Part shown: one piece after another, positions 12,391 to 60,380 of the stretch
How positions within the stretch are numbered: position 1 is the stretch's first letter
How the letters are laid out: each line of letters opens with the position of its first letter
Assembly (NCBI GenBank): GCA_965219685.1
Contig: CBDCOH010000002.1
Span: 3,008,001 to 3,072,000 of the forward strand
DNA length: 64,000 bases
Direction: 5' to 3'
Source: Candidatus Spongiisociaceae bacterium
GTDB lineage: Bacteria; Actinomycetota; Acidimicrobiia; Spongiisociales; Spongiisociaceae
Notes under the pieces: model-generated
What the model saw: only the letters and a program-made list of their open reading frames with translations
Databases searched by the model: none
Told to the model about the DNA's origin: nothing
Translations under genes and position numbers: made by a program

Positions 12391-12682
12391 ACCCGCCCGA
12401 GCGTTGTCCCCGACCACGCTCACACAGGACTCTCCCGCCGAAACCACCACAACCCGACGCCCAGTGAAGTCCGTTACGTCGTCGTCTTGCAGCGATCGTT
12501 ATCACTACAGCGGATGGACGGTTCGTTACCCGATCACGAGGGCTTGGGCTGGAATCCTCACTCTGCGCGAAACCACTCGTCCCGGGCGGAGTTTACCCCT
12601 GCCTCTTCGGACTGGTGGTCCACCAAACCGGGTCAACCTCAAACCCGAGTTTGGCGGGTTGGATGAACCGCCCCGGATGCTC

Positions 12683-13915
12683 CTATGTTTTGCAAATCGG
12701 TTTTGTGGTCGGGTCGGTGAGCCATTTCTGGTATCGGGTGGCGAGCTGGTGGTTGTGGTGGAGGCCTCGTTCGAGGAGCGAGAGGAGGGTGGGGTGGACC
12801 TGGAGGTGTTCGGCGGCGTCGGTGAGGGTTAGTCGGGTTTGGTGACGTTGGAGGCGGAGGTCGTTGCCGTCGGGTGTTGCGGACGGTTTGGTTAGTAGGT
12901 GGTAGATCTCGCGTGCGATGTGCCGTTTCAGGCAGCGGATGATCTCGCGGCGAGTTTTGCCTTCGGCTTTGCGTCTGCGGGTGTATTCGATGGTGCGGGG
13001 GTCGGTGCGCATCCGGTTGGTGGCGATTCGCCAGAGAGCGTTGTTGGCTTGGCGGTCGCCGCCTCGGTTGAGCCGATGCCGAACTATCTGTCCCGATGAT
13101 GCTTGGACGGGGCTGAGGGCGCATAGTGCCGCGAAGGACCGTTCCGATTTCATGCGTTGGGGGTTGTCGCCGGCGGCGACTAGGAGTGCTGCAGCGCTGT
13201 GGGGGCCCACTCCGGAGGCGGCTAGGAGCGCCGGGTTGGCCTTGGCGCAGAGACGGCGGATCTCGGTGTCGAGTTCGGCTATTTCTGTGTCGAGGGTCCG
13301 GTATCGGCGGGCCAGGTGCCGCAGCGCCTTTTTCGCGTACGCGGTGGTGGTCTGCGCTTCGCCGGGACGCCAGCGGACACAGATTCTGACCATCGCTTGG
13401 ATACTGGAGCCCCGGAGCCGATGTTTGACCTGCTCAGGGGCGGTTGTGAGGAGGGCGTGGATCTGGTTGGCGGCCTGGATGCGTGCTTTGACCGCTGAAC
13501 GGCGAGCCATCCGAAGCATTCTTATCCCTTCTACGGGTCCGTCCCCGCCTTTGGGTCGCCCGGTGGCATCTCCGCTGAGGGCAGCTCGGGCTGCGGCCTC
13601 GGCGTCGACGGTGTCGGTCTTGCCCCTGAGACGACGCAGCTGGCGGTTGGGACGCATGACCTCCACCACCTCGATGTCGGCTCGGGTCAGATAACGAGCC
13701 AGGCCGGCGCCGTAACTACCGCATCCTTCCACACCGACCTGAACCGGCTGCCCCCAGGAGCGAAGCCACTCCTCCAGCTGCGCGTATCCCGCCGCATCAG
13801 CCCTGAACTGCGCCGACCCCAGTAGGCGACCCGTGTGATCCAGCACCGCTCCAACGTGGACATCCCGATGGGTATCAACCCCTCCATACACATCGACCTG
13901 GTCTTGTTCCGGCAT
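12683..13915 (-). CDS. IS110 recombinase with C-terminal XRE-like HTH
   Basis: GGVDTH, VGVEG, KTDTVDAEAAA (DEDD); ASSG catalytic serine; GGDRQAN; HTH-like tail. Confidence 0.92.
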   Translation of the reverse strand: MPEQDQVDVYGGVDTHRDVHVGAVLDHTGRLLGSAQFRADAAGYAQLEEWLRSWGQPVQVGVEGCGSYGAGLARYLTRADIEVVEVMRPNRQLRRLRGKTDTVDAEAAARAALSGDATGRPKGGDGPVEGIRMLRMARRSAVKARIQAANQIHALLTTAPEQVKHRLRGSSIQAMVRICVRWRPGEAQTTTAYAKKALRHLARRYRTLDTEIAELDTEIRRLCAKANPALLAASGVGPHSAAALLVAAGDNPQRMKSERSFAALCALSPVQASSGQIVRHRLNRGGDRQANNALWRIATNRMRTDPRTIEYTRRRKAEGKTRREIIRCLKRHIAREIYHLLTKPSATPDGNDLRLQRHQTRLTLTDAAEHLQVHPTLLSLLERGLHHNHQLATRYQKWLTDPTTKPICKT

Positions 13916-13929
13916 GCGCTCTGCCTCCC

Positions 13930-14155
13930 CTCTCCTTGTGTCGGAATAGGCTTGTGCGGCAGCGCCGGTCCGAAGCGGGTGGACAAAACACTCAGGGTGT
14001 GGGGAAGAAACGACCAAAGCTCCTATGAGGTCACATCCGCTCCGGGCTGGCTGCCCGTACCCCCCGACCGGTGCCCGGCCGACAGATCCGGGGTAAGGCA
14101 CCACAGCCAGTTTCCCGGTGGGTCAGACCAGGCCCCGGTCGAGGTCCCCTTAAGT
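13930..14155 (-). ncRNA. Putative bridge RNA of IS110-A (boundaries approximate)
   Basis: Guide-like segments CCGGGAAAC and ACCCCGG match the target flanks; CATAGGAGC and TGAGTG match the element's own ends. Confidence 0.75.
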
Positions 14156-14183
14156 ATGAGTGTTTCTCCGGAGACTCGATTAG

Positions 14184-15443
<1,260 letters not shown>

Positions 15444-19466: not shown

Positions 19467-19690
19467 ACCACCAAGGGCACGGATGCTGCCTACCGACGGC
19501 CCTTCAACGGCATCCAAGAGCCATTGGCGAACGGTCACGCCGTCGGCACAAACCGGCTGGCCGTCCAACAAACGGCTATAGACGATTACCGGCACATACG
19601 CCTAAAGGCTCACAGGCTCAGACCGCGTCGACGGTCGGATCGGAGTGACCGCACCAGGCGTGTACGCTCGCCCCTTCGTACGGCTCTGTT

Positions 19691-19744
19691 GGCCCTGCGC
19701 GAAAACACTCATACTTGTAGGGTCCTCTAAACCGGGGCGGTTCA
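19691..19744 (+). mobile_element. Composite scar: ISL3 left IR, IS110 left end, IS3 IR
   Basis: GGCCCTGCGCGAAAAC + ACTCATACTTGTAGGGTCCTC (identical to the IS110-D left end) + AAACCGGGGCGGTTCA. Confidence 0.8.
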
Positions 19745-19942
19745 AACAAACAAACAAACCACCATCAGCCAGGGCATGAGGAGACACCCCCAGCGCCAGT
19801 ACAACGCCAACGACCGCAACCACACCCGACAGCGCAACACACCGACGACCACCCGCACGATGAGCCCGTACCGTCACCAGCATCAACGCGAGACTACAAA
19901 GGCTTCCCTTGGCGTAGTCGGGTTGCCTCGCCTTATTGGGAC

Positions 19943-20310
<368 letters not shown>

Positions 20311-39362: not shown

Positions 39363-40056
39363 GTTGCAGGTTGCTGTGGCTATAGAGCAGGCTGGGGATT
39401 TCGAGTGGGCATCGTGGGTCGCTGGGCGGGGACGCTTGCCGCGGGAGGGTTGGCTTCGTGGTTCGGTTGACGACCTGGCTGCGTTCGTGGACAGGGCAGG
39501 CGAGGACGCGGCCGGCCTGTCGGGGCTGGTGGACGACGTGCGTGACACGCTGTCGGCGGCGGCTCTACAGGTGGAGAACTATCCTAACGGCGAGGCCATC
39601 TCCGCGGAGTTCGGGGACGTGCTCTATCAGGCCGGGGGGGTGTCCCTGTCTTGTTGTCAAGCCGCTTTGGGCAGTTTCTCGGGTTGGCGGGGTTGGTAGG
39701 GCGTTTGGGTCTTGAGCATGTGATGGCGATCGAAACCGGGGCGGTTCACACAGGGTGGTGATGCTCCTATGACGCTCCTATATTGTGCAAGTCGGTTGTC
39801 GGGTGTCGATCCATTGTTGGTATCGGGTGGCGAGGTGGTGGTTGTGGTAGAGGCCCCGCTCGAGTCGCGATAGGAGGGTGGGTTGGGTATCGAGGTGGTG
39901 GGCGGCCTGGGTGAGGGTGATCCGGGCTTGGGTTCGACGGTTGCGTAGGTGGGTACCGTCCGGTGTTGGGTGGGGATTGGTCAGCAGTCGGTAGATCTCT
40001 CGGGCGATGTGCCGCTTGAGGCAGCGGATGATCTCTTTTCGTTTCTTTCCCTCGGC

Positions 40057-42002
40057 CCCGAGTTTGGCGGGTGTTTTGTGTTTTGCCTGGTCAGGGGGGA
40101 TTTGGGGTTGGGGTGTTTCCACTACATTGGCGGTGTGGGGGCTGGTGAGGGGGTTTAGGTGATGGTGGCTTTGTCCCAGGTGCGGGTATCTGCTCCGATG
40201 GCGGTGAGGGTTCGGGTTTGTAGGGGGCTGCGGCGGGTGGTGAGATGGATTCGGCGGCCGCTGGTGGTGAGTTGGTGGCGGCGGACACGGTTGAGGTCGC
40301 GCAGGGCTCGGGCGGCGGTGAGGTGCTGGTCTGCGAGGTCGGGGTCACGAACGTCGGCTGCTGCGAGAGCTTGGCTGATGAGGGTCTCGATTAGAGCGGC
40401 GTAGACACAGACCGCGACGTGGCCGCGGACTCGTTGTTCGGTCCAGTGTCTTATGGGGCGGAGCCGTAGGAAGTCTTTGAGGACCCGGAAGCGGGTTTCG
40501 ACTGCTTGCAGTTGGCGGTAGTAGTCCACGACTTGGGCGGTGGGGGCCTGGGTGGGTGTGAGGCTGGTAGCTAGCACGTAGCGGCCAGCGAGGAGCTCTT
40601 CGTATACGTGGGCGTCTTCGTTGTAGTGGTAGAGAAACCGTCCAGGTTCGATCTCGACGTCGAAGAGCCGCCCAGCCCCAACAGTGGCGAGGATACGCTG
40701 CGCGGCTGCCCCGATCTTGGCGGGGTCCTTCAGCCGGCCGGCACGGACGCGGAGCTCCAGCGCCCGCAGTTCGGTTTCGGCGGCGGCGACGATCTGGCCT
40801 GTGCGGGCGGTGTCTCGGCGGGCGCGGGCGTCGGATTCGACCACAACCGCCCGGGTGCCGTCCTCGAGGGTGATATCGGCGGCGCGGCAGCCGCGCTGGG
40901 GGAGGTCGACCCAGACGGTGTCGTCATCAAGAGCGCCAAGGGCTTGTTTGCTGATACGGTCACGACGCAGCTTTGTGGCCAATAGGTGGTCGAACCCGGC
41001 TTCGGCGACCGCCTCCACGTTGGCAGCTGACATCAGGCCCCGGTCGGCGACTACACAGATCCGGCCCACCGCGAACCTCGCCGCTAAGTCGCCCAACACG
41101 GCGGCCAGGGTGGTGGCGTCGCTGGTGTTCCCCGAGAACACATGATGGGCGATCGGGATCCCGTCGGAGGTGCATAGGAGGCCGATCACTATCTGGGGAC
41201 GATCAGCACGATGGTCCCGCGAATACCCGAACGCCCGGGAGGGGAACCGTCCAGAGGACCGTGTCGAACCCTCGAAATATGTGGAAGTCAGGTCGTAGCA
41301 AACCAGCCGCAGGTCCAGGTTCGTCAAGTCGCACAACCGGGCATACAGATGCGTCTCCGTTTGGTCTTTGGAGGCGGCGACCGCGTCCAGAGCCCGGTAA
41401 TACTGATCAAGGGACGGAGCCGACCAGCCGTCGGGCATCACCACATCCACCCCAGCCCACTCGGCCAGCCGCCGCTTCGAGCACGGCGCCACCAGGCGGT
41501 TTGCCACCATCGCGAACACCGCATGCTCCAGAGCCTTCGCGCCCCGCCTCGCGCCGACCTGAGCGAACCACTCCCCGAGGCCCAGCCGCTGCCACACCGA
41601 CCACACCGCCGCTACCGCCCCCACCGCAGGCGCCCCCTCAGCTGCCAACCCGCCGACATCGACACGTTCCCGCACCAGATGACGCTCCAGGGCGGCGACG
41701 ATGCGTTCCAGCTGACCGGACTCGCGCAAAGCGGTCACCTCCCCCAGCCGCAGAAGGGTCCGGTGACCGACCTTCGACCCGTGGCGGAAAGACTCCACCA
41801 AAGACAAATACTCGTACACCTTGTCGCCCCTGCGACGGCGGGTCGTCTTCACGAACATACCCAGAACCATACCACTAACAGCCCACCTATCCAACCATAT
41901 GTCGCCCCTACAAATCCCCACCCAAACCGTGCCCTACACCAAGAAACCCCAGGTCAGAGAACCGACCACCCCCACAAAGCCCCCCAACCCGCCAAACTCG
42001 GG
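40057..42002 (-). mobile_element. IS1634-family element with 5-bp TSD TCGGC
   Basis: IRs CCCGAGTTTGGCGGG; TSD at 40052-40056 and 42003-42007. Confidence 0.92.
40155..41858 (-). CDS. IS1634 transposase
   Basis: YDLTSTYFEG, GYSRDHR, VADRG, VETRFRVLK. Confidence 0.92.
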   Translation of the reverse strand: MFVKTTRRRRGDKVYEYLSLVESFRHGSKVGHRTLLRLGEVTALRESGQLERIVAALERHLVRERVDVGGLAAEGAPAVGAVAAVWSVWQRLGLGEWFAQVGARRGAKALEHAVFAMVANRLVAPCSKRRLAEWAGVDVVMPDGWSAPSLDQYYRALDAVAASKDQTETHLYARLCDLTNLDLRLVCYDLTSTYFEGSTRSSGRFPSRAFGYSRDHRADRPQIVIGLLCTSDGIPIAHHVFSGNTSDATTLAAVLGDLAARFAVGRICVVADRGLMSAANVEAVAEAGFDHLLATKLRRDRISKQALGALDDDTVWVDLPQRGCRAADITLEDGTRAVVVESDARARRDTARTGQIVAAAETELRALELRVRAGRLKDPAKIGAAAQRILATVGAGRLFDVEIEPGRFLYHYNEDAHVYEELLAGRYVLATSLTPTQAPTAQVVDYYRQLQAVETRFRVLKDFLRLRPIRHWTEQRVRGHVAVCVYAALIETLISQALAAADVRDPDLADQHLTAARALRDLNRVRRHQLTTSGRRIHLTTRRSPLQTRTLTAIGADTRTWDKATIT

Positions 42003-43039
42003 TCGGCCTTGCGTCGGGTGACGTAGGCTTTCGTGGCGGGGTCGGTACGCATCCGGTTGGTGGCGATCCGCCATAGCGCGTTGTTGGCTTGGCGGTTGCC
42101 GCCCTGGTTGAGCCGGTGGCGGATGGTCTGTCCGGATGATGCGGGGACGGGGCTGGTGCCGCAGAGGGCAGCGAAGGCTGCCTCGGTGCTCATGCGTTGG
42201 GGGTTGTCGCCCGCGGCTATAAGCAGAGCTGCTGCTGTGTCAGGTCCGACCCCACGAGCTGCCAGAAGCGCCGGGTTTGCCTGGGTGCAGAGACGGCGGA
42301 TCTCCGTGTCGAGGTCGGCGATCTCGGCAGTCAGCGACTGGTATCTGCGGGCCAGGTGCCGCAGGGCACGTTTCGCGTGGGTGGTGGTGGTGTGGTCTGT
42401 GCCGGGTCGGAAAGCGGCGCAGACCCGCACCCGGGCTTTGAGATTCTTGCCTCGGAGCTGGTTCTTTACCGACTCTGGGGCTGTTACCACCAGGGCGTGG
42501 ATCTGGTTAGCGGCCTGCGTGCGGGCTTTGGTGGCGGATCGGCGTACCACCCGCAGCATCCTGATCGACTCCACAGGCCCATCGGCGGTCTTAGGGCGGG
42601 CTGTCGCTTCGCCGTTAAGAGCAGCCCGAGCGGCGGCTTCGGCATCGGTGGAATCGGTCTTGCCCCGGCGGCGGCGTAGCTGGCGGTTGGGACGATTCAC
42701 CTCCACCACCTCGATGCCGACCTCGGTGAGGTGACGGGCCAACCCTGCCCCGTAGCTACCCGTTCCTTCCACCCCGACCCGGATCAGGCAGCCCTGCGAT
42801 CCCATCCAGGCGACCAACCCCCGATACCCGACACCATCCGCCGCGAACGACTCAGACCCCAGCAGCCGGCCTGCGTTATCAACCACCGCCCCAACATGGA
42901 GATCCCGATGCGTGTCCACTCCGCCGACCACAACCCCCTCGGTTCGAACCTTCTCTGCCATGATGCCCTCCCTCCGTGGGCCGCTTAGAATCCAACCCCC
43001 TGGCCCGGGCAGAGCGGCGGACAGAACACTCTGTGAGTA

Positions 43040-43270
43040 TCGGGTGGGTCTCGTTGAGGTTGCCAGGATTGGCGTCAGCGGCGGGGTCGTGACCCGAGAA
43101 CACTCTGACCTCTGTGTCTTTACCGTGATGCGTCCGACACCGCCGCTGCGCCGCCTGGGCGTTCCGTTGCTGGCCTGATCAGAAGCTTGTCCACCGTCCG
43201 GGGTGTGACCCATCACAGTCCTGCCGTCACGGTCTGCGCCTTTAGGAGGCGATAGCCCAGTTCGCACAAG
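43040..43270 (+). ncRNA. Putative bridge RNA of IS110-C (boundaries approximate)
   Basis: AGAACACTC and ACCGTG match the target flanks; AGAAGC and TCACAG match the element's own ends. Confidence 0.75.
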
Positions 43271-43287
43271 AAAGAGAGCGTCTTCTT

Positions 43288-44361
43288 ATGTTGGCCACGA
43301 TGGTAGAGCACGTGATCGGAATCGATCCTGACCGGGACCGGGTCACCGCGTCGGTGGTGGACACTGCCACCACCGGAGAGCAGGCATCTGGGGTGTTTGG
43401 CGCCACCCGGGTGGGTTACGACCGTCTGCTGAAATGGGCAGGCACCCACACCCGGGTAGGTGACCGGGTGTGGTCTGTGGAAGGCACCGGCAGCTATGGA
43501 GCTGGCGTGGCCGGCTACCTTTCTGCCCGTGGTGAGTGGGTGGTGGAGTTCGGGGATCCCACCCCGACCCGCGACGGCGCCAAGACCGACGCCCTCGACG
43601 CACGGCGGGCCGCCCGCCAGGTCCTAGGCCGTGGTCGGCTGCCAGCTCCCCGCGCTCGGGGAAACCGCGAAGCGCTGCGAGTGTTGGAAACCACCCGCCG
43701 AGGAGCCCAAACAGCCAGGGTGGCGGCGATCAACGAGTTGAAAGCCCTGGTAGTAACCGCACCGGTTGGTCTGCGGGACCAACTCGGGGGCCTCACCACC
43801 GCTGGCCTGGTCGCCAAGTGCCACAGATTCCGGCTCCGAGGCGGGACCCTCACCGAGCACACCGCCACCAAGACAGCCATGCGATCTGTCGCCCGACGTA
43901 TCAAGACTCTCACCACCGAGATAGCCGAACTAACCGCGCTCATCGCCGAACTCGTCGAAACAGTCGCTCCCCACCTGGTTGACCAGCCCGGAGTCGGACC
44001 CATCACCGCCGCTCAGATCTATGTCGCCTGGTCACACCGGGGCCGCTTCCGTAACGAAGCAGCCTTCGCCCGCCTCGCCGGCGTAGCACCACTCGAGGCG
44101 TCCTCCGGACAAAACAGCCGCCACCGGCTCAACCGCCACGGCGACCGAACCCTCAACCAAGCCCTCCACACCATCGTCATCACCCGCACCCGCACCTGCC
44201 CCAAGACCCAGGCCTACATCGCTAAACGAACCGCCGAAGGCAAAACCCCCCGAGAAGCCCGACGCTGCCTCAAACGCTACATCGCCCGCCACCTCTACCG
44301 GCTCCTAGAGAACCCACCCAACCACAACACCCATACAGGACCCCCCGCCGGCAGCGGCTAA
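43288..44361 (+). CDS. IS110 recombinase
   Basis: GIDPD, SVEGTGSYG, KTDALDA, ASSG, HGDRTLN. Confidence 0.92.
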   Translation: MLATMVEHVIGIDPDRDRVTASVVDTATTGEQASGVFGATRVGYDRLLKWAGTHTRVGDRVWSVEGTGSYGAGVAGYLSARGEWVVEFGDPTPTRDGAKTDALDARRAARQVLGRGRLPAPRARGNREALRVLETTRRGAQTARVAAINELKALVVTAPVGLRDQLGGLTTAGLVAKCHRFRLRGGTLTEHTATKTAMRSVARRIKTLTTEIAELTALIAELVETVAPHLVDQPGVGPITAAQIYVAWSHRGRFRNEAAFARLAGVAPLEASSGQNSRHRLNRHGDRTLNQALHTIVITRTRTCPKTQAYIAKRTAEGKTPREARRCLKRYIARHLYRLLENPPNHNTHTGPPAGSG

Positions 44362-44410
44362 CCGAACCTCTCCCCACCCCCAACACCGGATTTGCACAAC
44401 ATAGAAGCAT

Positions 44411-44572
44411 CAAGGTGGTGGAGAACGGACAAAGCTCCTATTAGGTCACATCCGCTCCCCGGGCCTAGGGACCTCCCCCAAGGCCGGGAACAGGCCGACA
44501 GGTCATAGAAAAGGCACAACGGCCAGTTTGTCAATGGGTCAGACCCGCCCCGGCCAAGGGGGTCCTACCAGT
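44411..44572 (-). ncRNA. Putative bridge RNA of IS110-B, 5' part (remainder at about 42970-43031)
   Basis: Target guides TTGACAAAC and TTCTATG; donor guide ATAGGAGC. Confidence 0.72.
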
Positions 44573-44583
44573 ATGAGTGGTTG

Positions 44584-45520
44584 TCAAATCGGCGAAGGGG
44601 CCGCCTCGTGAGTTCGGAGCCACCTCTGGTATCGGGTAGCGAGTTGGTGGTTGTGGTCTCGGCCTAGCTCAAGTGCTGAGATGCAGCTGGGGTGGGTGCT
44701 GAGAGCTCGGGCGGCCTGGGTGACGGTGATGCCGCCTTGTTGGCGTCGGGTGCGTAGCCCGGCGCAGTTCGGGGTTGGGGGCGGGTTGGTCAGGAGCCGG
44801 TAGATCTCTCGGGCGATGTGCCGCTTGAGGCAGCGGATGATCTCCCGCTTCTTCTTGCCCTCGGCCTTGCGTCGTGCCACGTAGGCTTTGGTGGCGGCGT
44901 CGTGGCGCATCCGGGTGGTAGCGATTCGCCAGAGGGCGCTGTTGGCTTGGCGGTTGCCTCCGCGGTTGAGACGATGCCGGATGGTCTGGCCTGATGACGC
45001 CTGGACGGGGCTGGTGCCGCACAGCGCAGCGAAGGACTTCTCCGATTTCATACGTCCGGGGTTGTCGCCGGCGGCGACCAGCAGAGCGGCGGCTGTGTCA
45101 GGGCCGATACCTTTGGCGGCTAGGAGAGCAGGGTTGGCCTTCGCGCAGAGGCGACGGATTTGGGCTTCGAGTTGGGTGATTTCTGTGTCGAGGGCCCGGT
45201 ATCGGCGGGCCAGGCGCCGCAGGGCACGCTTCGCATAGGCGGTGGTGGTGTGGTCTGTGCCGGGTCGGAAAGAGGCGCAGACCCGGACCCGGGCTCCGAT
45301 ATCGAGGTCCTTTAGCCGGCGTTTCACACCCTCAGGAGCGGTAACAGCCAGAGAATGGAGCTGGTTGGCAGCCTGGGTGCGGGCCTTGGTAGCGGACCGG
45401 CGGACCACCATCAGCATCCGTATGCACTCGACCGGACCATCACCAGATTTGGGAACGGCGGTAACTTGGCGGCTGGCAGCCGCCCGGGCTGCCGCCTCGG
45501 CGTCTACGCTGTCCGATCTG
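44584..45520 (-). pseudogene. IS110-E recombinase, N-terminally truncated, with HTH tail
   Basis: Begins near SDSVDAEAAARA; highly similar to the 49447-50682 protein. Confidence 0.85.
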
Positions 45521-48270: not shown

Positions 48271-48492
48271 TCACAGTGCAGTCGAAACCCGGTGGCGAGT
48301 AGAAGCTCGGAGCGCCGCAGGCTCGTCACCGAGATCGAGTGACTGGAGAGAGAGGTGGCGAACATCCGGGCCGAGGTTTTGCAGCGCGCACGGACCGGTG
48401 ACCGGGAGCCGACGATAAGCGCGCCCACTTCGCGTACGAGGCGGCCGACCGAGCTGCACCGACGGCTTCGGGTCTTGTCGGCCCGGGATCGT

Positions 48493-49182
48493 TTATTGCT
48501 GACCTCGCGAAGGGCACTCAGAAGGTGGTGGATCGAGTTGGGCCTTGAGGAGAGAGGTCGATGGAAGCGTATTCGCGACGGTCTGGGCTAGTGAGCGGTA
48601 GGTACACGGTTGTACGAGGTCTCTTAGCGGGTTGAGGCCGATGGACTGTTGGCCTGGTGGAAGCTCCGCCTCGGGAGTCACGTAGAATTCCCACTGTCCG
48701 GCTTCTCGGTGGTCAGCAACGGCGTGTTCTGTTGTGCCGTGCCAGGCGAACACATAGATGTCGGCATGCCGTTGTCGTTCTGTGCTGATCGTGTGGTAGC
48801 CGCCCTCGGAGCACTTCCACGATTTGTTGCGTCCCTCAGAGCACGTCGTCCAATATGTATCGTGTGTAGCGATATCGAACGATGGGTAGGCCGGTCGATT
48901 CGTGGAGTCCGGGCTGGACCAGCTCTGGAGCCTGCTGGACTGCTTGACTTCGAGACGAGCACCGGTTCTGGCGTGTTCGAGGTCCCATGGCGCCCATGGT
49001 TCGGTAAGGCACCAGCCTTGGTCAACACTCCTTAAGATGAGCTCCACCAAGCACTCTACGTAGTCGGCACGTTTGATGTTGCTGATCAGCGGTCGGTTGT
49101 ACATGTGGTCCGCTAAGCGTTTCAGGACCTGAGTCGAGATCGTGCGTTGCTCGGTCAACTCGTGATGACTAGTCCTCGCCAT
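48493..49182 (-). CDS. PD-(D/E)XK-like hypothetical nuclease
   Basis: E.LV...WDL...RLEVKQS...ADIYVFAWH. Confidence 0.65.
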   Translation of the reverse strand: MARTSHHELTEQRTISTQVLKRLADHMYNRPLISNIKRADYVECLVELILRSVDQGWCLTEPWAPWDLEHARTGARLEVKQSSRLQSWSSPDSTNRPAYPSFDIATHDTYWTTCSEGRNKSWKCSEGGYHTISTERQRHADIYVFAWHGTTEHAVADHREAGQWEFYVTPEAELPPGQQSIGLNPLRDLVQPCTYRSLAQTVANTLPSTSLLKAQLDPPPSECPSRGQQ

Positions 49183-49224
49183 GAGGTGATCTCCTCTCCT
49201 GAGGCTTCGCGAAAACACTCATAC

Positions 49225-49430
49225 TTGTAGGGTCCTCCTCGGCTGGGGGCCGGGTCTGACCCACGCGAAAACTGGCGTTTGGTGCCTTTCCCACGATCTG
49301 TCGACCTGGCCCTAGCCGGGAGCCCTGAACCGGGGAGCGGGGTGACCTTATAGGAGCTTCGACTTCTCCACCTTGAGTGTTCTGTCCGCCGCTCTGTCCG
49401 GCTCAGGGGGACTTGGAATTGTAGGCAGTT
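49225..49430 (+). ncRNA. Putative bridge RNA of IS110-D (boundaries approximate)
   Basis: CGCGAAAAC and TCCCACG match the target flanks; ATAGGAGC and TGAGTG match the element's own ends. Confidence 0.8.
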
Positions 49431-49446
49431 GGCGGAAGGTGGGCAC

Positions 49447-50682
49447 ATGGAAGAGCAAGATCGAGCCGATGGCATGGTTGTGGTCGGTGGGGTGGACACG
49501 CATCGGGATACCCATGTTGGGGCGGTGGTCGATAGCGCGGGTCGGCTGTTGGGATCGGCCCAGTTCCGGGCTGATACGGCCGGCTATGGGCAACTTGTCG
49601 CCTGGATGGAGTCGTGGGGTCGGATCAGCCGGGTCGGGGTGGAAGGGACTGGCAGCTACGGTGCCGGCTTGGCCCGTCACCTCACCGGCGCCGGTATCGA
49701 GGTGGTGGAGGTGAACCGTCCCAACCGCCAGCTACGCCGCCGGCGGGGCAAGGACGACCACACCGACGCCGAGGCAGCAGCTCGGGCAGCTCTGAATGGT
49801 GAAGCAACCGCGGTGCCCAAGTCCGGCGACGGGCCGGTCGAGTGGATACGGATGCTGACAGTGACGCGCCGCTCCGCCGTCAAGGCCCGCACCCAGGCCG
49901 CCAACCAACTCCATGCCTTGGTGGTTGGTGCCCCAGAGCCGATAAAAGACCAGGTAAAGGGCATGAAACTCAAAGGCCTGGTTAAGACTTGTGCCCGGTT
50001 CCGACCCAGCGGAGAGTCCTCCCTCAGCTACGCTAAGCAGGCTCTCCGCCGCCTGGCCCGCCGCTACCAGGTCCTCGACACCGAGATCGCAGAACTCGAT
50101 GTCGAGATCCGCCGCCTCTGCGCCAAGGCCAACCCGGCGCTCCTAGCCGCCGACGGCGTCGGCCCCGACACAGTCGCCAAGCTCCTAGTCGCAGCCGGCG
50201 ACAACCCCCAGCGCATGAAATCGGAACGATCCTTCGCTGCGCTGTGCGGTGTCAGCCCTGTGCAGGCGTCATCTGGGCGAAGGGTTCGGCATCGTCTCAG
50301 CCGAGGCGGCAACCGCCAAGCAAACAGCGCCCTGTGGCGGATCGCTACCAACCGGATGCGGACCGACCCCGCCACCCAAGAATACGTCGCCAGACGAGAG
50401 GCTGAGGGCAAAAAGCGAACCGAGATCATCCGCTGCCTCAAGCGGCACATCGCCCGAGAAACCTACCGGCTCCTCACCAACCCGCCACCAACCCCGAACT
50501 GCGCCCGGCTACGCAGCCGACGCCAACAACGCGGAATCACCGTCACCGAGGCCGCCCGAACTCTCGGAACCTACCCCAGCCGCATCTCAGCACTCGAGCT
50601 AGGCCGAGACCACAACCACCAACTCGCTACCCGATACCAGAGGTGGCTCCGAACCCACGAACCGGCCCCATCGCCGATTTGA
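49447..50682 (+). CDS. IS110 recombinase with C-terminal XRE-like HTH
   Basis: GGVDTH, VEG, KDDHTDA, ASSG; tail LRSRRQQRGITVTEAARTLG...ISALELG. Confidence 0.93.
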   Translation: MEEQDRADGMVVVGGVDTHRDTHVGAVVDSAGRLLGSAQFRADTAGYGQLVAWMESWGRISRVGVEGTGSYGAGLARHLTGAGIEVVEVNRPNRQLRRRRGKDDHTDAEAAARAALNGEATAVPKSGDGPVEWIRMLTVTRRSAVKARTQAANQLHALVVGAPEPIKDQVKGMKLKGLVKTCARFRPSGESSLSYAKQALRRLARRYQVLDTEIAELDVEIRRLCAKANPALLAADGVGPDTVAKLLVAAGDNPQRMKSERSFAALCGVSPVQASSGRRVRHRLSRGGNRQANSALWRIATNRMRTDPATQEYVARREAEGKKRTEIIRCLKRHIARETYRLLTNPPPTPNCARLRSRRQQRGITVTEAARTLGTYPSRISALELGRDHNHQLATRYQRWLRTHEPAPSPI

Positions 50683-50889
50683 CAAACATAGGAGCATCGT
50701 GGGGTAGGGCTGCTGTTGTCGGTGCGGGGGCTCATGTTACGAGAACTCCTCGGGCTGCGAAGTTGTTGGTGTTGGTGAAGCCGTGAGCGACTCGGCGTAG
50801 GACCTGGAGCAAGTTGTTGATCCCTTCGATGGGTCCGTTGGTTGCTGGTCTGCTGCGGTGGTAGGCGAGGATTCCTTCTCCCCATGCAC

Positions 50890-51132
50890 CCATGTCCGCA
50901 TGGACAACAGCGCCGGTCGTCGTTACGACGACCGCAAGATCAACGAGGGCAAAACCCACAAAGCAGCAATTAACGATGCCTCAAACGCAAGATCGCATCA
51001 CGCGTCTGGCGCCTCATGCCCGCCGACGAACACCACCGATCCAGTGTCGCCAGAGCGCAACCAAAGGCCGCTTGACAAACACAGAGGCACCCCGGGTATC
51101 ACCCGAGTTTCCGGCAAACCCGGGGCAGTGCA
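50890..51132 (+). pseudogene. IS110 3' remnant followed by an IS3-like IR
   Basis: YDDRKINEGKTHKAA; TTGACAAACACAGAGGCAC end; CCGGCAAACCCGGGGCAGTGCA. Confidence 0.6.
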
Positions 51133-51754
51133 TCGGTCATCGTTGAAATGCTGACCACCTGAGGGGGGAGTTGGCCCGGGAGGGGTCGCGGTGCCCCGAC
51201 GGTTGGTCAAGTGTCTCAAGGTGTTGGACAGGCGGCGCAAACGGGTCACAGACCTGTAGGTGAGCGGCCAGCGCACCAACTCTGGTATGGCGCCGCCGGT
51301 TCGGCTGAGAAGCTGTCGCGACCGGCACTAACGCGGCCAGGCTGTGAGTGGGGGAAGCTTGGGGCCTTGGCGGCTGTTTACTCCGTCGGGGACAGCGTGT
51401 ACGGGGTGGTCGAGTGGGAAACCGAAGGCGTTCGGCTAGTGGTCACCGCCGACTTTGTCGGCCTATGCGGCCCGCTCCGCCCCCGTACCCCGTTCCCGGC
51501 TGGCGGAGTGGGTAGCCTCAGGGGGATGTCACGAGCCGAGGGGGTGCCCTGTCGTCCCCTCTCGATCGGACTTCAGCGAATGCACCCACCCGAAACCATT
51601 CGGTGGTCTCCCAGCGGTGCTCCGATCGCTCCGGCGGCGGGGAACTATCCGCCGGGGTGTGTAGAGCCCGCGTGGGCGAGGGTGCTTGGCGTGGGCCGGA
51701 TACCGGCTCGGTGGGTACTTATGTGGCCTTACGTGCTTGGGCCTCACAGCACAA

Positions 51755-54700
51755 TCACGACCGGGTTCCCGGCCCGATTGATGCATTTTGCGTGGCCCAG
51801 TCGACTCCGTCGGGTGCTGGGGTTGGTGTGTGGCCCCAGCAGGTGATGGTTCCGTCGCTGCCTAGCCCGCAGAAGTGGGAGTCACCCGCGGAGATGGCTG
51901 TGTAGGTCCCGCCGGGTACGTTGACCGCACGGTTGCCGCAGGTGATGGTTCCGTCGGTGCGTAACCCGCACGGATAACTGTCCCCGCTGGCCAATGCAGC
52001 GAACCTACCGTCGAGTGGCATAGTGGTTCCCCGGTTTGTCGTGCAGCTGATGGTCTGGTCGGTGCGTAGCCCACACGTATACCTAGGCCCGGTCGATACC
52101 GCCGTGAATGTCCCTTCTGGTGGTTCGGGTACCTCCGAGTCCTCAGCGCCCCAGCATGCAATGGTCTGGTCGGTGCGTAGCCCGCACGCATACGCTCCGA
52201 TGGAAACGGCGACAAACGTCCCTTCTGGTGGTTCCGACAAGCCGCCCCCCGCCGGGGTTCCCCAGCATGCAATGGTCTGATCGGTGCCTATCCCGCAGGA
52301 AGACTCATAGCCACTGCTGACAGCGGTGTAGGAGCCTTCGGGACGGTACTCCGAGAAGACCATGCAAGACCATCTGCCGTAGCTCGGAACACACTTCGGG
52401 ATCGCTCCCCAGCAGATTACGGTTCCGTCCGTGCGTATCCCGCACGAATGGGTCCTGCCGCTGCTCACCGAAGTGAACGTCCCGGGCGGCGGTTCGGCTT
52501 GGCCCGAGTTGTTGGCTCCCCAGCAGGTAATCGCCTGGTCGGCTCCTATTGCACAAGAATGGGTCCTGCCGCTGCTCACCGCGGTGAACTGTTCGTTAGC
52601 TTTTGGGGGGGAGACCACCCACAAGCTCCTGTCGCCCCAGCAGGTGATGTTGCCTCCCGCGCGTACCCCGCAGGTGTACCGCTGGCTAGCAGCGACCGAG
52701 GTGAACTTCCCAGGTGGCGGCTCCGCCTCGCCTCTGTTGTTGGCGCCCCAGCAAGTGACGGTTCCGTCGGCGCGTAGTCCGCACGAGTGGGTGTAACCGG
52801 CGGTGACGCTGACGAACCTGCCCCCGGGCGCGTCGGTTTGCCCACCGACGAAACCGTGTCCACGTGAGTTGTTACCCCAGCACTTGACCGTCTGGTCGGT
52901 TCGCAGCCCGCAGGTGTGACCACCGTCGATACTGCCACCCGCCGAGATAGCTGTGAACAGCCCTTGGGGCGGGTCGGTAGCGCCGGCGTGGTTCCAGCCC
53001 CAGCAGACCACGGTCCCGTCGGTTCGCAGCCCGCACGAGTGCCTGAAACCGGCTGTTACTGCGGTGAACCGCCCATCAGGAGCGTCCGCCTGTCCGTCTG
53101 TGTTGGTGCCCCAACAGGCAATCGTCTGGTCGGTTCGTAACCCACAGGAGTGGTCTCCGCCTCCGTAGGTAGAGATCGAGGTGAACTTTCCTTCCGGAAC
53201 ATGGACCCGGGTGGTGCCGTCCCAGTTACCCGACCAGCAGACGACTATCTGGTCGGGGCGTAGCCCACACGAGTTGCTAGCACCGGCTGTGACCGCGGTG
53301 AAGGGTCCGGGAGGTGGGTCCACCCCGCCGTCCCTGTTCGGGCCCCAACAAGCGACGGTTCCCTCGGTTCGGAGCCCACAGGTGTGGGAGTCTCCGGTGG
53401 CTACCGCGGTGAAGGTCCCAGATGGTATCCCCGCCTTACCGCCGTGATCGTATGCCAAGCAGGCAATGGCCCCATCCGACAACACCTCACACGAATGCGA
53501 CCAGCCCATCCCGGAGAAAGACCCAAACGGCGGCGACACCTGCCCAGACTTGTTGCTACCCCAGCAGATGATCGTATGGTCGGTTCGGAGCCCACACGAA
53601 TGCGACCCACCCGCTGATACCGCCGTGAAAGTCCCCGCCGGTGCCTCTGTCCGCTCCTGCCAGTTGCTACCCCAGCAGATGATGGTGTGGTCGGTTCGGA
53701 GCCCACACGAATGCCTTTCACCGGCTGATACCGCGGTGAAAGAACCCGCTGGTGCGTCCGCCCGTCCCCACGCGTTGCTGCCCCAGCAGATGATTGACAG
53801 GTCCGACAGCAGCCCGCACGAATGCGACTCACCAGCGGCTACTGCCGCGTAAGATCCGGTGGGTGCCTCTGTTTGTCCTGATGTATTGGCGCCCCAGCAG
53901 ATGATCGTGTGGTCGGTTCGGAGCCCACAGGTGTGGGAGTCTCCGGCGGATACCGCGCTGAAAGATCCAGGCGGTGCCTCTGTCTGTCCCCATGAGTTGG
54001 CACCCCAGCAGATGACGGTGTGGTCGGTTCGGAGCCCACAGGAGTGCGACCTACCGGCGGCTACTGCCGTATAAGACCCGGCCGGTGCCTCTGTCTTCCT
54101 CTCCCAGTTGCTGCCCCAGCAGGTGACCGATCCGTCCAGCAGTAGGCCACACAAGTGCGAGTAACCGGCGGACACCGCGGTGTAGGACCCAGACGGGGGT
54201 GACAGCTGTTGGTCGTCGGGCCAGCAGGTGACTGATCCGTCGGACAGTAGCCCACACGAGAAGTCCCCGTGACCGGCGGACACCGCGGTGAAATCCGAGC
54301 CGGAGGTACCTGCCTCTGGGGTTTCGCGACCGACCGTAGAAGCCCGCCGCAGGAACGTGGCCATCTGAGCGCGGGTAACCGGCTCGTCAGGGCAGAACCG
54401 CGGTGGCTCGGTCGCGCATCCCGCTGTAACCCCAGCAGCCCATAACGCCTCGATGTTCGCCTCGTGCCTGTTGCCGCCAGTATCTACAAAGCCCGCGCCA
54501 GACGCCACTGCGTCAGCCAGCCCGTACGCCCGCTGCAGGAACGTGGCCATCTGAGCGCGGGTAACCGGGTCGTCAGGGCAATAGCGGAGCGGCCCGGTCG
54601 CGCATCCCGCTGTGATCCCGGTCTCCGCTAGACGCTCAACATGATCCTGCCACCAAACCCCCGCCTCAACATCGGCAAACCCCGAGCCGGCCGCCGGGAC

Positions 54701-55075
54701 CGGATCCCCACCATCGAGAATCCGTACCAGCCACACAGCCATGACCCACCGCAGCAGAGGCGCCCCCGGACAGAACTCACCATCCCCACACTCAGTACTC
54801 TCGAACACTCCCTCAGACGCCAAGCGGCGAATGGCCTCAGCATGCACCGACCCATCGTCCACATCCTCGAACCCCCCAACAGCACCAACAGCACCACCCG
54901 ACCACCCGAACTCCCGTGCTCCTGCCGCGGATGGAACAGCTACAGACACCACCAGCATCGACACAACCGAAAGTACCAGACCAACACGACCCGCCCCACC
55001 CAAATCAAACCTCCCTGCGGCCGCCACCGGATGTTCGACCATCCTAAGAGCCGGACTCACGCCAACCGCCTCCAA
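51755..55075 (-). CDS. SLH + RCC1-repeat surface protein (start uncertain)
   Basis: SLH motifs and many CWG repeats; shares idiosyncratic inserts with 10087-12390. Confidence 0.9.
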   Translation of the reverse strand: MEAVGVSPALRMVEHPVAAAGRFDLGGAGRVGLVLSVVSMLVVSVAVPSAAGAREFGWSGGAVGAVGGFEDVDDGSVHAEAIRRLASEGVFESTECGDGEFCPGAPLLRWVMAVWLVRILDGGDPVPAAGSGFADVEAGVWWQDHVERLAETGITAGCATGPLRYCPDDPVTRAQMATFLQRAYGLADAVASGAGFVDTGGNRHEANIEALWAAGVTAGCATEPPRFCPDEPVTRAQMATFLRRASTVGRETPEAGTSGSDFTAVSAGHGDFSCGLLSDGSVTCWPDDQQLSPPSGSYTAVSAGYSHLCGLLLDGSVTCWGSNWERKTEAPAGSYTAVAAGRSHSCGLRTDHTVICWGANSWGQTEAPPGSFSAVSAGDSHTCGLRTDHTIICWGANTSGQTEAPTGSYAAVAAGESHSCGLLSDLSIICWGSNAWGRADAPAGSFTAVSAGERHSCGLRTDHTIICWGSNWQERTEAPAGTFTAVSAGGSHSCGLRTDHTIICWGSNKSGQVSPPFGSFSGMGWSHSCEVLSDGAIACLAYDHGGKAGIPSGTFTAVATGDSHTCGLRTEGTVACWGPNRDGGVDPPPGPFTAVTAGASNSCGLRPDQIVVCWSGNWDGTTRVHVPEGKFTSISTYGGGDHSCGLRTDQTIACWGTNTDGQADAPDGRFTAVTAGFRHSCGLRTDGTVVCWGWNHAGATDPPQGLFTAISAGGSIDGGHTCGLRTDQTVKCWGNNSRGHGFVGGQTDAPGGRFVSVTAGYTHSCGLRADGTVTCWGANNRGEAEPPPGKFTSVAASQRYTCGVRAGGNITCWGDRSLWVVSPPKANEQFTAVSSGRTHSCAIGADQAITCWGANNSGQAEPPPGTFTSVSSGRTHSCGIRTDGTVICWGAIPKCVPSYGRWSCMVFSEYRPEGSYTAVSSGYESSCGIGTDQTIACWGTPAGGGLSEPPEGTFVAVSIGAYACGLRTDQTIACWGAEDSEVPEPPEGTFTAVSTGPRYTCGLRTDQTISCTTNRGTTMPLDGRFAALASGDSYPCGLRTDGTITCGNRAVNVPGGTYTAISAGDSHFCGLGSDGTITCWGHTPTPAPDGVDWATQNASIGPGTRS

Positions 55076-58600: not shown

Positions 58601-59121
58601 CGCGCCCAACATGGCTACAGGCACTACGAGGCTGACTCTGTGGCAGGTGGAGTCCAGATCGAGGCGGACACCGTCAGGGAGGCTGTGCGGCTCGCCGACG
58701 ACCGTTTCGACTTCGCCGGCTACCACCAAGTACTGGTCGTCGCACCCAGTTCACACTTCGGGGGCGGCGTCGCCGTTGACGGAGTCCACACCGATGAGGG
58801 ACCGATCGGCCGAGCGGCCGTGATCAACTCTTACAGACATGACAAGGACACAGACCCCAACGACTGGAGTTATGCTGCAGCTCACGAAATCGTCCACGGA
58901 CTCGGACTGCTAGACCTGTATCCCTTTGACCAGGCGCGGCACCGGCAACCAGCTCCCCCCAGAGACCGCAAATGGGTACCCTCCAGGTTCGGTCTCATGA
59001 ACCTATGGGCCTACTTCCTCACAGACGAAAGAGACCCACGCCTCGCGCTTACTTGGCATTGGCCCGACGGCAACACCACCACCGATCTGAACCGCCCCGG
59101 TTACCCCGGAGACTCGATTAG

Positions 59122-60380
<1,259 letters not shown>

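Follow-up and report, generated by a model that had tools for sequence, protein, structure and literature searches.

A structurally intact IS110-group insertion sequence with a predicted bridge RNA at the tip of an ISL3 element in a Candidatus Spongiisociaceae genome

The insertion sequence (IS) that we call IS110-D lies in a 64,000-nucleotide stretch of the genome of a Candidatus Spongiisociaceae bacterium (the window; assembly GCA_965219685.1, contig CBDCOH010000002.1, positions 3,008,001 to 3,072,000). Sequence comparisons make it very probable that IS110-D is a structurally intact member of the IS110 group, placed in the terminal inverted repeat (IR) of an ISL3 element by RNA-guided, site-specific insertion. 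The bridge-recombinase family of RNA-guided IS110 elements was described in 2024 (PMC11208160). The features of the element are collected in Table 1.

The limits of IS110-D were set by a self-search of its own genome (4.42 Mb in two contigs) for ISL3 ends without an insertion, which read GAGGCTTCGCGAAAA up to the junction and CGTGGGGTAGGG beyond it. Because GAGGCTTCGCGAAAA is followed directly by CGTGGGG in these empty sites, the element proper is 1481 bp long, with its insertion point 15–16 nt within the ISL3 terminal IR. A single C (49216 or 50698) is common to element and target and is assignable to neither side, and comparison with the empty sites shows no target duplication beyond it. The earlier note on this DNA had given the span as 49201-50704; the element is indeed there, but that span takes in 16 nt and 7 nt of target DNA. 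The same ends are shared by five other copies in the genome (A, E, F, G and H) and by 18 complete elements among 24 loci fetched for comparison, and a genome census found four perfect unoccupied target sites (C2:3147714, 3147628, 108453 and 105057) together with two sites that carry one mismatch. No terminal IR of IS110-D is among the 25 longest inverted repeats shown of the 116 pairs found. The left end is 230 nt long (49217-49446), and the right end extends 15 nt past the stop codon (50683-50697); by the end-length distinction drawn in the literature, a long non-coding left end with a short right end places the element in the IS110 group rather than the IS1111 group.

The reading frame between these ends is open and uninterrupted, and its predicted product is an intact IS110 transposase. 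It matches DEDD_Tnp_IS110 (PF01548, E 7.5e-24) and Transposase_20 (PF02371, E 9.9e-21), and towards the C terminus, at about residues 355–395, there is an HTH_3 match of 24.3 bits (cut-off 23). The IS621 recombinase of solved structure (8wt6) is a distant homologue, recovered at E 1.3e-10 with the single sequence and at E 1.7e-15 with a 10-sequence family profile. All four acidic residues of the DEDD RuvC-like N-terminal domain are present, as is the conserved serine of the Tnp domain (PF02371); these five catalytic residues (D17, E66, D104, D107 and S276) show no variation in the family alignment A2, and the profile alignment sets them on the IS621 motifs GIDT, IEATG, KTDTVDA and ESG, with S276, which lies within ASSG, on the serine of ESG. 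The third motif reads KDDHTDA in IS110-D and fits K-x-D-x-x-D-A, the family consensus being KTDxVDA; its register is that of the profile alignment, the single-sequence phmmer alignment having misplaced it. The protein family is large (7981 of 8000 scored candidates at E ≤1e-10); the best 120 candidates are 68–91% identical, and 63 of these 120 carry a precomputed HTH family. The element had been described earlier as intact, a description that the open frame, the Pfam domains and the five catalytic residues bear out.

The left end appears to have the two-loop layout of a bridge RNA, with a target loop and a donor loop, and its guides match both junctions. In the target loop, the left target guide (LTG), CGCGAAAAC, is identical at nine of nine positions to the flank at 49208-49216, which takes in part of the left target (LT) and the shared C. 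For the right target guide (RTG), TCCCACG, a perfect partner would read CGTGGGA; the flank CGTGGGG therefore pairs with this guide at six of seven positions with one rU-dG wobble, and on the ISL3 variant that hosts copy F the guide pairs at seven of seven. In the donor loop, the left donor guide (LDG) repeats 50688-50695 of the right end, within the left donor (LD), and the right donor guide (RDG), TGAGTG, is the complement of CACTCA at 49216-21, which holds the right donor (RD). The two nucleotides that follow RTG on its 3′ side (AU) are complementary to the final bases of LD (AT), as those that follow RDG (UU) are to the final bases of LT (AA), a 2-nt pairing known as 'handshake guides' in the IS621 literature (PMC13626964, PMC11208160). 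Under the IS621 rule, LTG and LDG read as the top strand because it is the bottom strand with which they pair, RTG and RDG form their pairs on the top strand and are its reverse complement, and each pairing takes in the core; all four guides of IS110-D obey this strand rule exactly. The window contains the 9-mer CGCGAAAAC three times, where 0.51 occurrences are expected and none of 100 shuffles gives three, and its third occurrence, at 19698, is the left junction of a truncated sister IS110 in another ISL3 IR. The identity of 49264-49272 to the left flank, the pairing of TCCCACG (49289-49295) with CGTGGG at 50698 (six of six, with the wobble at the seventh position) and the resulting near-perfect guide to the ISL3 IR had all been proposed before; each was recovered, and covariation of guide and flank over 10 guide classes supports the last.

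This covariation was seen in related elements. All of the 24 loci retrieved come from metagenome-assembled genomes, whose titles name mostly Acidimicrobiia, Acidimicrobiales and Candidatus Spongiisociaceae, with one from Actinomycetes and five, from three bins, labelled 'bacterium'. From the pool of these loci and the six complete copies of the genome itself, 25 insertions with both flanks were parsed; the right end of one (L006, length 1912) was mis-assigned by the parsing script. For a permutation test we took one insertion from each of the 10 guide classes, which represent several Acidimicrobiia genomes, and permuted the flanks, leaving out as redundant or of the same class A, G, E, F, L004, L005, L006, L008, L009, L015, L017, L020, L022, L023 and L024, and also L001 (no left flank), L010, L011 and L013 (left end truncated or replaced) and L021 (a fragment). 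Cognate LTGs matched their flanks at a mean of 8.1 of 9 positions (4.06 for non-cognate pairs) and cognate RTGs at 5.4 of 7 (2.70 for non-cognate pairs), and the observed total was reached in 0 of 100,000 permutations on either side. LTG and RTG scores of single insertions span 9/7 (L007, L009) to 5/2 (L017). On the donor side RD and RDG change together, TCTCA being found with GAGAG in L018, ACACA with GTGTG in L019 and ACTCC with GGAGT in L014, and the handshake positions covary in L018 and L019 (UC against GA).

The predicted fold is likewise supported by comparison. In the target-loop helix and hairpin 97.8% of cells are paired, as opposed to 32–49% when the partner strand is slid; nine cells have changed on both sides, and three pairs show two-sided changes. 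The observed value was reached by none of 500 shuffles for four of five measures and by 103 of 500 for the remaining one, the count of pairs with a two-sided change. The donor loop was derived by hand and checked by duplex folding and against inverted repeat I6, which extends its helix in IS110-D. Its inner duplex (5′-GCGG..UG.GAC with GUCC.CCGC) is present in 14 of 14 classes, with a swap of U-A to C-G in L018 and L019. The minimum-energy fold of IS110-D alone contains the target loop and pairs part of LDG.

A putative promoter arises when the two ends are joined. We joined the ends in a script and scored the product with the same sigma-70 criteria as a linear scan; that of IS110-D reads TTGACA, 17 nt, CATACT, passes the criteria with a score of 10 of 12 and has both A2 and T6. 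The 17-nt spacer is made up of 13 nt of the right end, the single C and 3 nt of the left end, and arises only from this exact join. Nineteen of the 25 copies pass; the six that do not are five A-type copies (TTGCAA, 8 of 12) and L006 with its mis-assigned right end. In the integrated arrangement the hexamer at the −35 position scores 0–3 of 6, and the promoter scan found no sigma-70-like site in the linear region 49000-50900, so that the predicted promoter motif exists only with the ends joined. The junction motif had been pointed out earlier, along with TTGCAA and TTGCAC as its counterparts in A and B; we find the hexamers of IS110-D at 50679-50684 and 49220-25 and the two variants in copy A and in a fragment near 39781. 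The accompanying statement that IS110 circles form a promoter for the bridge RNA agrees with published accounts of IS621 and ISEc21, in which circle-junction promoters drive the RNA (PMC11208160, PMC13626964, PMC11187229). No abutted right-end/left-end junction was matched at ≤3 edits in the assembly or the 24 loci. Of the sequencing runs listed as matching this sequence none is of RNA, and in the four best (X1–X4, from one sample, possibly the source of the assembly) the assembled contigs break at repeat boundaries, contain no joints and are uninformative on circles or excision.

Table 1. Coordinates of IS110-D and its parts within the window
Feature	Position	Strand	Basis
Outer 16 nt of ISL3 terminal IR: LT plus shared C at 49216	49201..49216		Empty ISL3 ends; duplication of the left flank reaches only to 49200
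IS110-D, element proper, 1481 bp	49217..50697	+	Empty-site comparison; ends shared with other copies
RD, ACTCA, read by RDG	49217..49221	+	RD and RDG covary in L018, L019 and L014
−10-like hexamer, CATACT	49220..49225	+	All 25 scored copies have CATACT or CATAAT
Predicted bridge RNA, about 180 nt, both ends inferred	49231..49410	+	Start: −10 position and first helix; end: outer donor-loop helix
Target-loop basal helix, 5′ strand, pairs with 49300-49313	49247..49260	+	Helix covariation
LTG, CGCGAAAAC	49264..49272	+	9/9 identical to flank 49208-49216
Target-loop apical hairpin, GGC...GCC	49274..49286	+	3 pairs invariant in 14/14 sequences; invariant pairs are uninformative for covariation
RTG, TCCCACG (49289-95), and 2-nt handshake AT (49296-97)	49289..49297	+	Reverse complement matches right junction ATCGTGGG(G)
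Target-loop basal helix, 3′ strand	49300..49313	+	Helix covariation
Donor-loop basal helix, 5′ strand, pairs with 49384-49408	49323..49346	+	Inverted repeat I6; inner duplex
LDG, ATAGGAGC	49350..49357	+	Identical to right-end stretch 50688-50695
RDG, TGAGTG (49374-79), and handshake TT (49380-81)	49374..49381	+	Reverse complement AACACTCA matches left junction 49214-49221
Donor-loop basal helix, 3′ strand	49384..49408	+	Duplex folding; inverted repeat I6
Predicted transposase (bridge recombinase) gene, 411 aa and stop	49447..50682	+	Pfam; IS621 alignments; family invariants
−35 hexamer, TTGACA, overlaps stop codon	50679..50684	+	Sequence
LD, ATAGGAGCAT, last bases of element	50688..50697	+	Sequence; matched by LDG
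Remainder of ISL3 end: right target CGTGGGG (50698-50704), then 3′ end of ISL3 transposase gene	50698..50887	−	PF01610 match for 50732-50959 (−)

By analogy with IS621 and ISEc21, excision would bring the right and left ends of IS110-D together and so create the sigma-70-type promoter, from which the RNA of about 180 nt in the left end and then the recombinase gene behind it would be transcribed. The RNA would fold with two internal loops, the donor loop reading the element's own junction through LDG (ATAGGAGC) and RDG (TGAGTG), and the DEDD/Ser recombinase would exchange strands at the shared C. The left junction reads AAAA-C-ACTC, the right junction GCAT-C-GTGG and the target AAAA-C-GTGG, so a single core nucleotide is certain in IS110-D. 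IS110-D lacks the identical core dinucleotide of IS621 (CT), which is a feature specific to IS621 and not one that defines the family. Of the two possible dinucleotide frames, NC and CN, neither is identical between donor and target; over the 10 classes, read by eye, the NC frame matches in three and the CN frame in four, and in L014 and L016 TC is found on either side. AC is carried by LTG and by the complement of RDG, TC by LDG and by the complement of RTG, so that each of the four guides matches the integrated junctions, as expected under the handshake model for a core made up of the C and a mismatched neighbour.

The genome carries other copies of the element. Copy E (C2:1190919-1192414) is 94.4% identical to IS110-D, intact and outside any ISL3 element, with identical guides and the same TTGACA; copy F (C2:3093118-3094647) is 92.8% identical, frameshifted and inside an ISL3 IR; and two further D-type left-end stubs are found at window position 19698 and at C2:1368307. 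The A-type copies are about 71% identical to IS110-D. Copy A itself (window 12676-14161, minus strand) is intact, and copies G and H are 97–98.5% identical to it and have one premature stop in common. Between IS110-D and E the coding sequences differ at 79 of 1233 nt, with dS 0.16 and dN/dS 0.21. Their left ends differ at four positions, all at or beyond element position 181, the first 180 nt being identical; the RNA region is under strong constraint, and its lack of change set against the dS of the coding sequence argues for selection on function after the two diverged. We also observed that G (C2:215882-217378) and H (C2:4231550-4233050) are 98% alike and occupy different sites with the same transposase stop (SSI*AMV), which suggests that a defective A-type lineage has been mobilised in trans. 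Elsewhere in the window, 39790-45519 is a nest of IS110 fragments on the minus strand that correspond to residues 307–407, 1–320 and 102–411 of D-like transposases, and between them, at 43312-44319 (+), lies an IS110 lineage that is 45% identical and has no HTH.

Several results weigh against an active, RNA-guided IS110-D. Neither an RNA nor a circle nor a read across an empty site was seen, and its transcription, circle formation and present-day activity are matters that we infer. The folding energy of the left end is unremarkable (z = −0.90; 36 of 200 shuffles are as stable or more so), and no Rfam family matches the element at the gathering threshold, a threshold of 10 yielding only two chance matches (E>6). 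RNAalifold found the target-loop helix and the RD/RDG complementarity and missed the donor loop, pairing part of LDG instead. Some flanks fit their guides poorly, namely those of L017 (5/9 and 2/7), L018 (RTG 3/7) and L023 (RTG 3/7), with L014, L019 and G also weak at RTG (4/7), and the handshake positions are mismatched in L008, L012, L014 and L016. Donor and target have a single C in common and no identical dinucleotide of the IS621 kind. Finally, IS110-D has no near-identical sister, the nearest being E and the frameshifted F, and the host ISL3 is a decayed remnant, of which 190 bp survive to the right of the element (50698-50887), similarity to other ISL3 copies resuming only at 51164-51302. 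On these last two grounds the insertion is probably old, and recent movement of IS110-D is unsupported.

The same two grounds lend weight to the view that IS110-D is a real element that no longer moves, having been inserted long ago and become fixed with its sequence unbroken. Its exact sequence is present in a single copy, the four perfect target sites are still unoccupied, and no joined ends appear in the assembly or the 24 loci. Decay is not seen in the element itself, however: the frame is open with its catalytic residues complete, both promoter hexamers are intact, and the low dN/dS relative to E and the unchanged 180 nt of RNA region point to selection on function since the two separated. 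We regard present immobility as a serious possibility, though on balance we doubt it.

It could also be that the joined TTGACA and CATACT are a by-product of conservation of the donor ends, and that transcription proceeds mainly by read-through or from an internal promoter while the element is integrated. CATACT overlaps RD and lies near the recombination site, so it would be conserved for other reasons too; low-level transcription without the junction promoter is recorded for IS621; and the A-type elements, with their weaker −35, have nonetheless spread to three sites. TTGACA, by contrast, is outside the stretch matched by LDG and is exact in 16 of the 25 copies despite differing protein C termini, and the spacing is held at 17–18 nt, with a compensating 1-nt change in L014, where the right end is one base shorter and the left end one longer. 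Given in addition that the linear locus offers no promoter-like site, we consider a by-product unlikely. That the guide-flank identity is due to chance or to a captured piece of ISL3 IR, with no RNA guidance, is scarcely credible: a single locus taken alone does offer just a 9-mer and a 6/7-mer, but the two matches are separated by a hairpin and lie on opposite strands, as a captured copy would not, the 9-mer is expected only about half a time per window, and unrelated guides match unrelated flanks across 10 classes.

The RNA-guided reading of IS110-D agrees with much of what is described for IS621 of E. coli (PMC11208160, PMC13626964). Both recombinases have a DEDD RuvC-like domain and a Tnp domain with a catalytic serine; both elements have a long left end that encodes an RNA of about 180 nt with target and donor loops (predicted in IS110-D); in both, LTG and LDG correspond to the top strand, RTG and RDG are complementary to it and a handshake position of 2 nt lies 3′ of each of RTG and RDG; and in both the −35 is in the right end and the −10 in the left end, to be united only in the circle. 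Both also use a repeated element as target, REP in the case of IS621 and the terminal repeat of another IS in that of IS110-D. The two differ in that the proteins are only distantly similar (E 1e-10) and of unequal length (411 aa against 326–328 aa), in that IS110-D has a C-terminal HTH_3/HTH_31 domain with no counterpart in IS621 or ISCro4 (326–328 aa), in that IS621 has CT at both boundaries whereas donor and target of IS110-D have one common C, and in that the host of IS110-D is a high-GC member of the Acidimicrobiia. In the IS110-type element ISEc21, described as using a seekRNA, circles form and transposition proceeds only with the upstream non-coding region (PMC11187229); as there, the circle of IS110-D would make a promoter, there is no target duplication and the target belongs to another IS family (IS3 for ISEc21). 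ISEc21, compared by its description, inserts into an internal IS3 coding region, unlike IS110-D, which is at the tip of an ISL3 IR.

Insertion into the terminal repeats of other mobile elements has precedents as well. IS1383 of Pseudomonas putida reportedly integrates into the inverted repeats of IS1384 (Muller 2001), and like IS110-D would thus be an IS110-family element with the terminal IR of another IS as its specific target; IS1384 is listed in a table as IS5 family, and its assignment to the ISL3 family was dropped. IS4321 and IS5075, of the IS1111 group, are said to target the terminal IRs of Tn21-family transposons (Partridge and Hall 2003), and resemble IS110-D, as far as they are described, in site- and orientation-specific insertion at a fixed distance inside the terminal IR of another transposon. 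They differ from it in that elements of the IS1111 group encode the guide RNA at the right end and possess sub-terminal inverted repeats; such repeats are absent from IS110-D, and its long end is the left one. The targeting of repeats and other mobile elements by the IS110 family is therefore already known. No paper on IS110 insertion into ISL3 IRs, or on the C-terminal HTH of this clade, was found in a literature search that was not exhaustive.

Relatives of IS110-D, which come from sponge and other metagenome bins, are aimed at IS elements repeatedly. D-like elements are found against ISL3 ends in two other genomes as well: L010 adjoins one repeat type, and L011, L013 and L001 adjoin the other. 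The stop region of the ISL3 transposase gene (CCTCGTAAC followed by CATGA) is read in the opposite orientation by the L002/L006 class, so that two guide classes of one clade target the same IS family. Copy A, whose guides are CCGGGAAAC and ACCCCGG, is inserted 13 nt within the IR tip of an IS3-family element (TGAACCGCCCCGG up to the junction); unoccupied sites of this type are present at eight IS ends in the genome with one or two mismatches to an 18-nt pattern, one of them near window position 59090, and three ALIL frameshift pseudoknots (14480-14596, 19977-20093 and 59418-59534) mark IS3-family elements. The scar at window positions 19686-19745 has three parts, the tip of the other type of ISL3 repeat (GGCCCTGCGCGAAAAC), a 21-nt piece of D-type left end and a 17-nt tip of an IS3 repeat (ending in AAACCGGGGCGGTTCA), and may have arisen when two IS110 target or donor sites recombined. 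In L005 (OZ219922.1, about 872-2451) a full element is preceded by the first 100 nt or so of the left end of another copy, and this piece ends exactly at its own LTG; the sister's guide, mimicking a target, seems to have been the insertion site.

Further features lie in the surroundings of IS110-D. The left flank (48400-49200), which includes a 241-aa ORF without a Pfam match, has a 99.9% inverted duplicate at C2:3097590-3096790, and the duplication runs precisely as far as the ISL3 tip. At 50888-51163, in the gap that separates the two ISL3 remnants, the translation contains, judged by eye, an IS110-like C-terminal fragment (including RRYDDRKINEGKTHKAAIN). Further on, at 51755-55075 (−), is a gene for a 1106-aa protein with 14 RCC1_2 repeat matches and an SLH domain.

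Insertion into other ISs is expected behaviour for an IS110 element, and IS110-D therefore confirms the known model and leaves it unchanged. Bridge recombinases are under development as programmable DNA-insertion tools, for which orthologues with other cores, domains and hosts are useful starting material, and the documentation of IS110-D is unusually complete, comprising exact ends, six guide segments, four unoccupied natural targets and relatives whose guides change with their flanks. The earlier note had named it the best candidate for cloning; with ends, guides, natural target and promoter all defined it is a good one, 'best' being a matter of judgement, as copy E is equally intact and equivalent to it.

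In this genome, moreover, the ends of two IS families are seen to be disabled by a third. We suggest tentatively, and with some scepticism of our own, that the HTH-bearing IS110 clade of the Acidimicrobiia may be a specialised parasite of other ISs, repeatedly re-programmed onto the tips of co-resident elements, with a core that is one nucleotide long or tolerant of mismatches and an HTH that adds protein-level contact or autoregulation. The classes that would fit are those of IS110-D (position 15 of the ISL3 IR), of L002/L006 (ISL3 stop region) and of copy A (position 13 of the IS3-family IR). If this proved true, the clade would represent successive natural re-programmings of a guide and would supply a bridge recombinase that is orthogonal and under different constraints.

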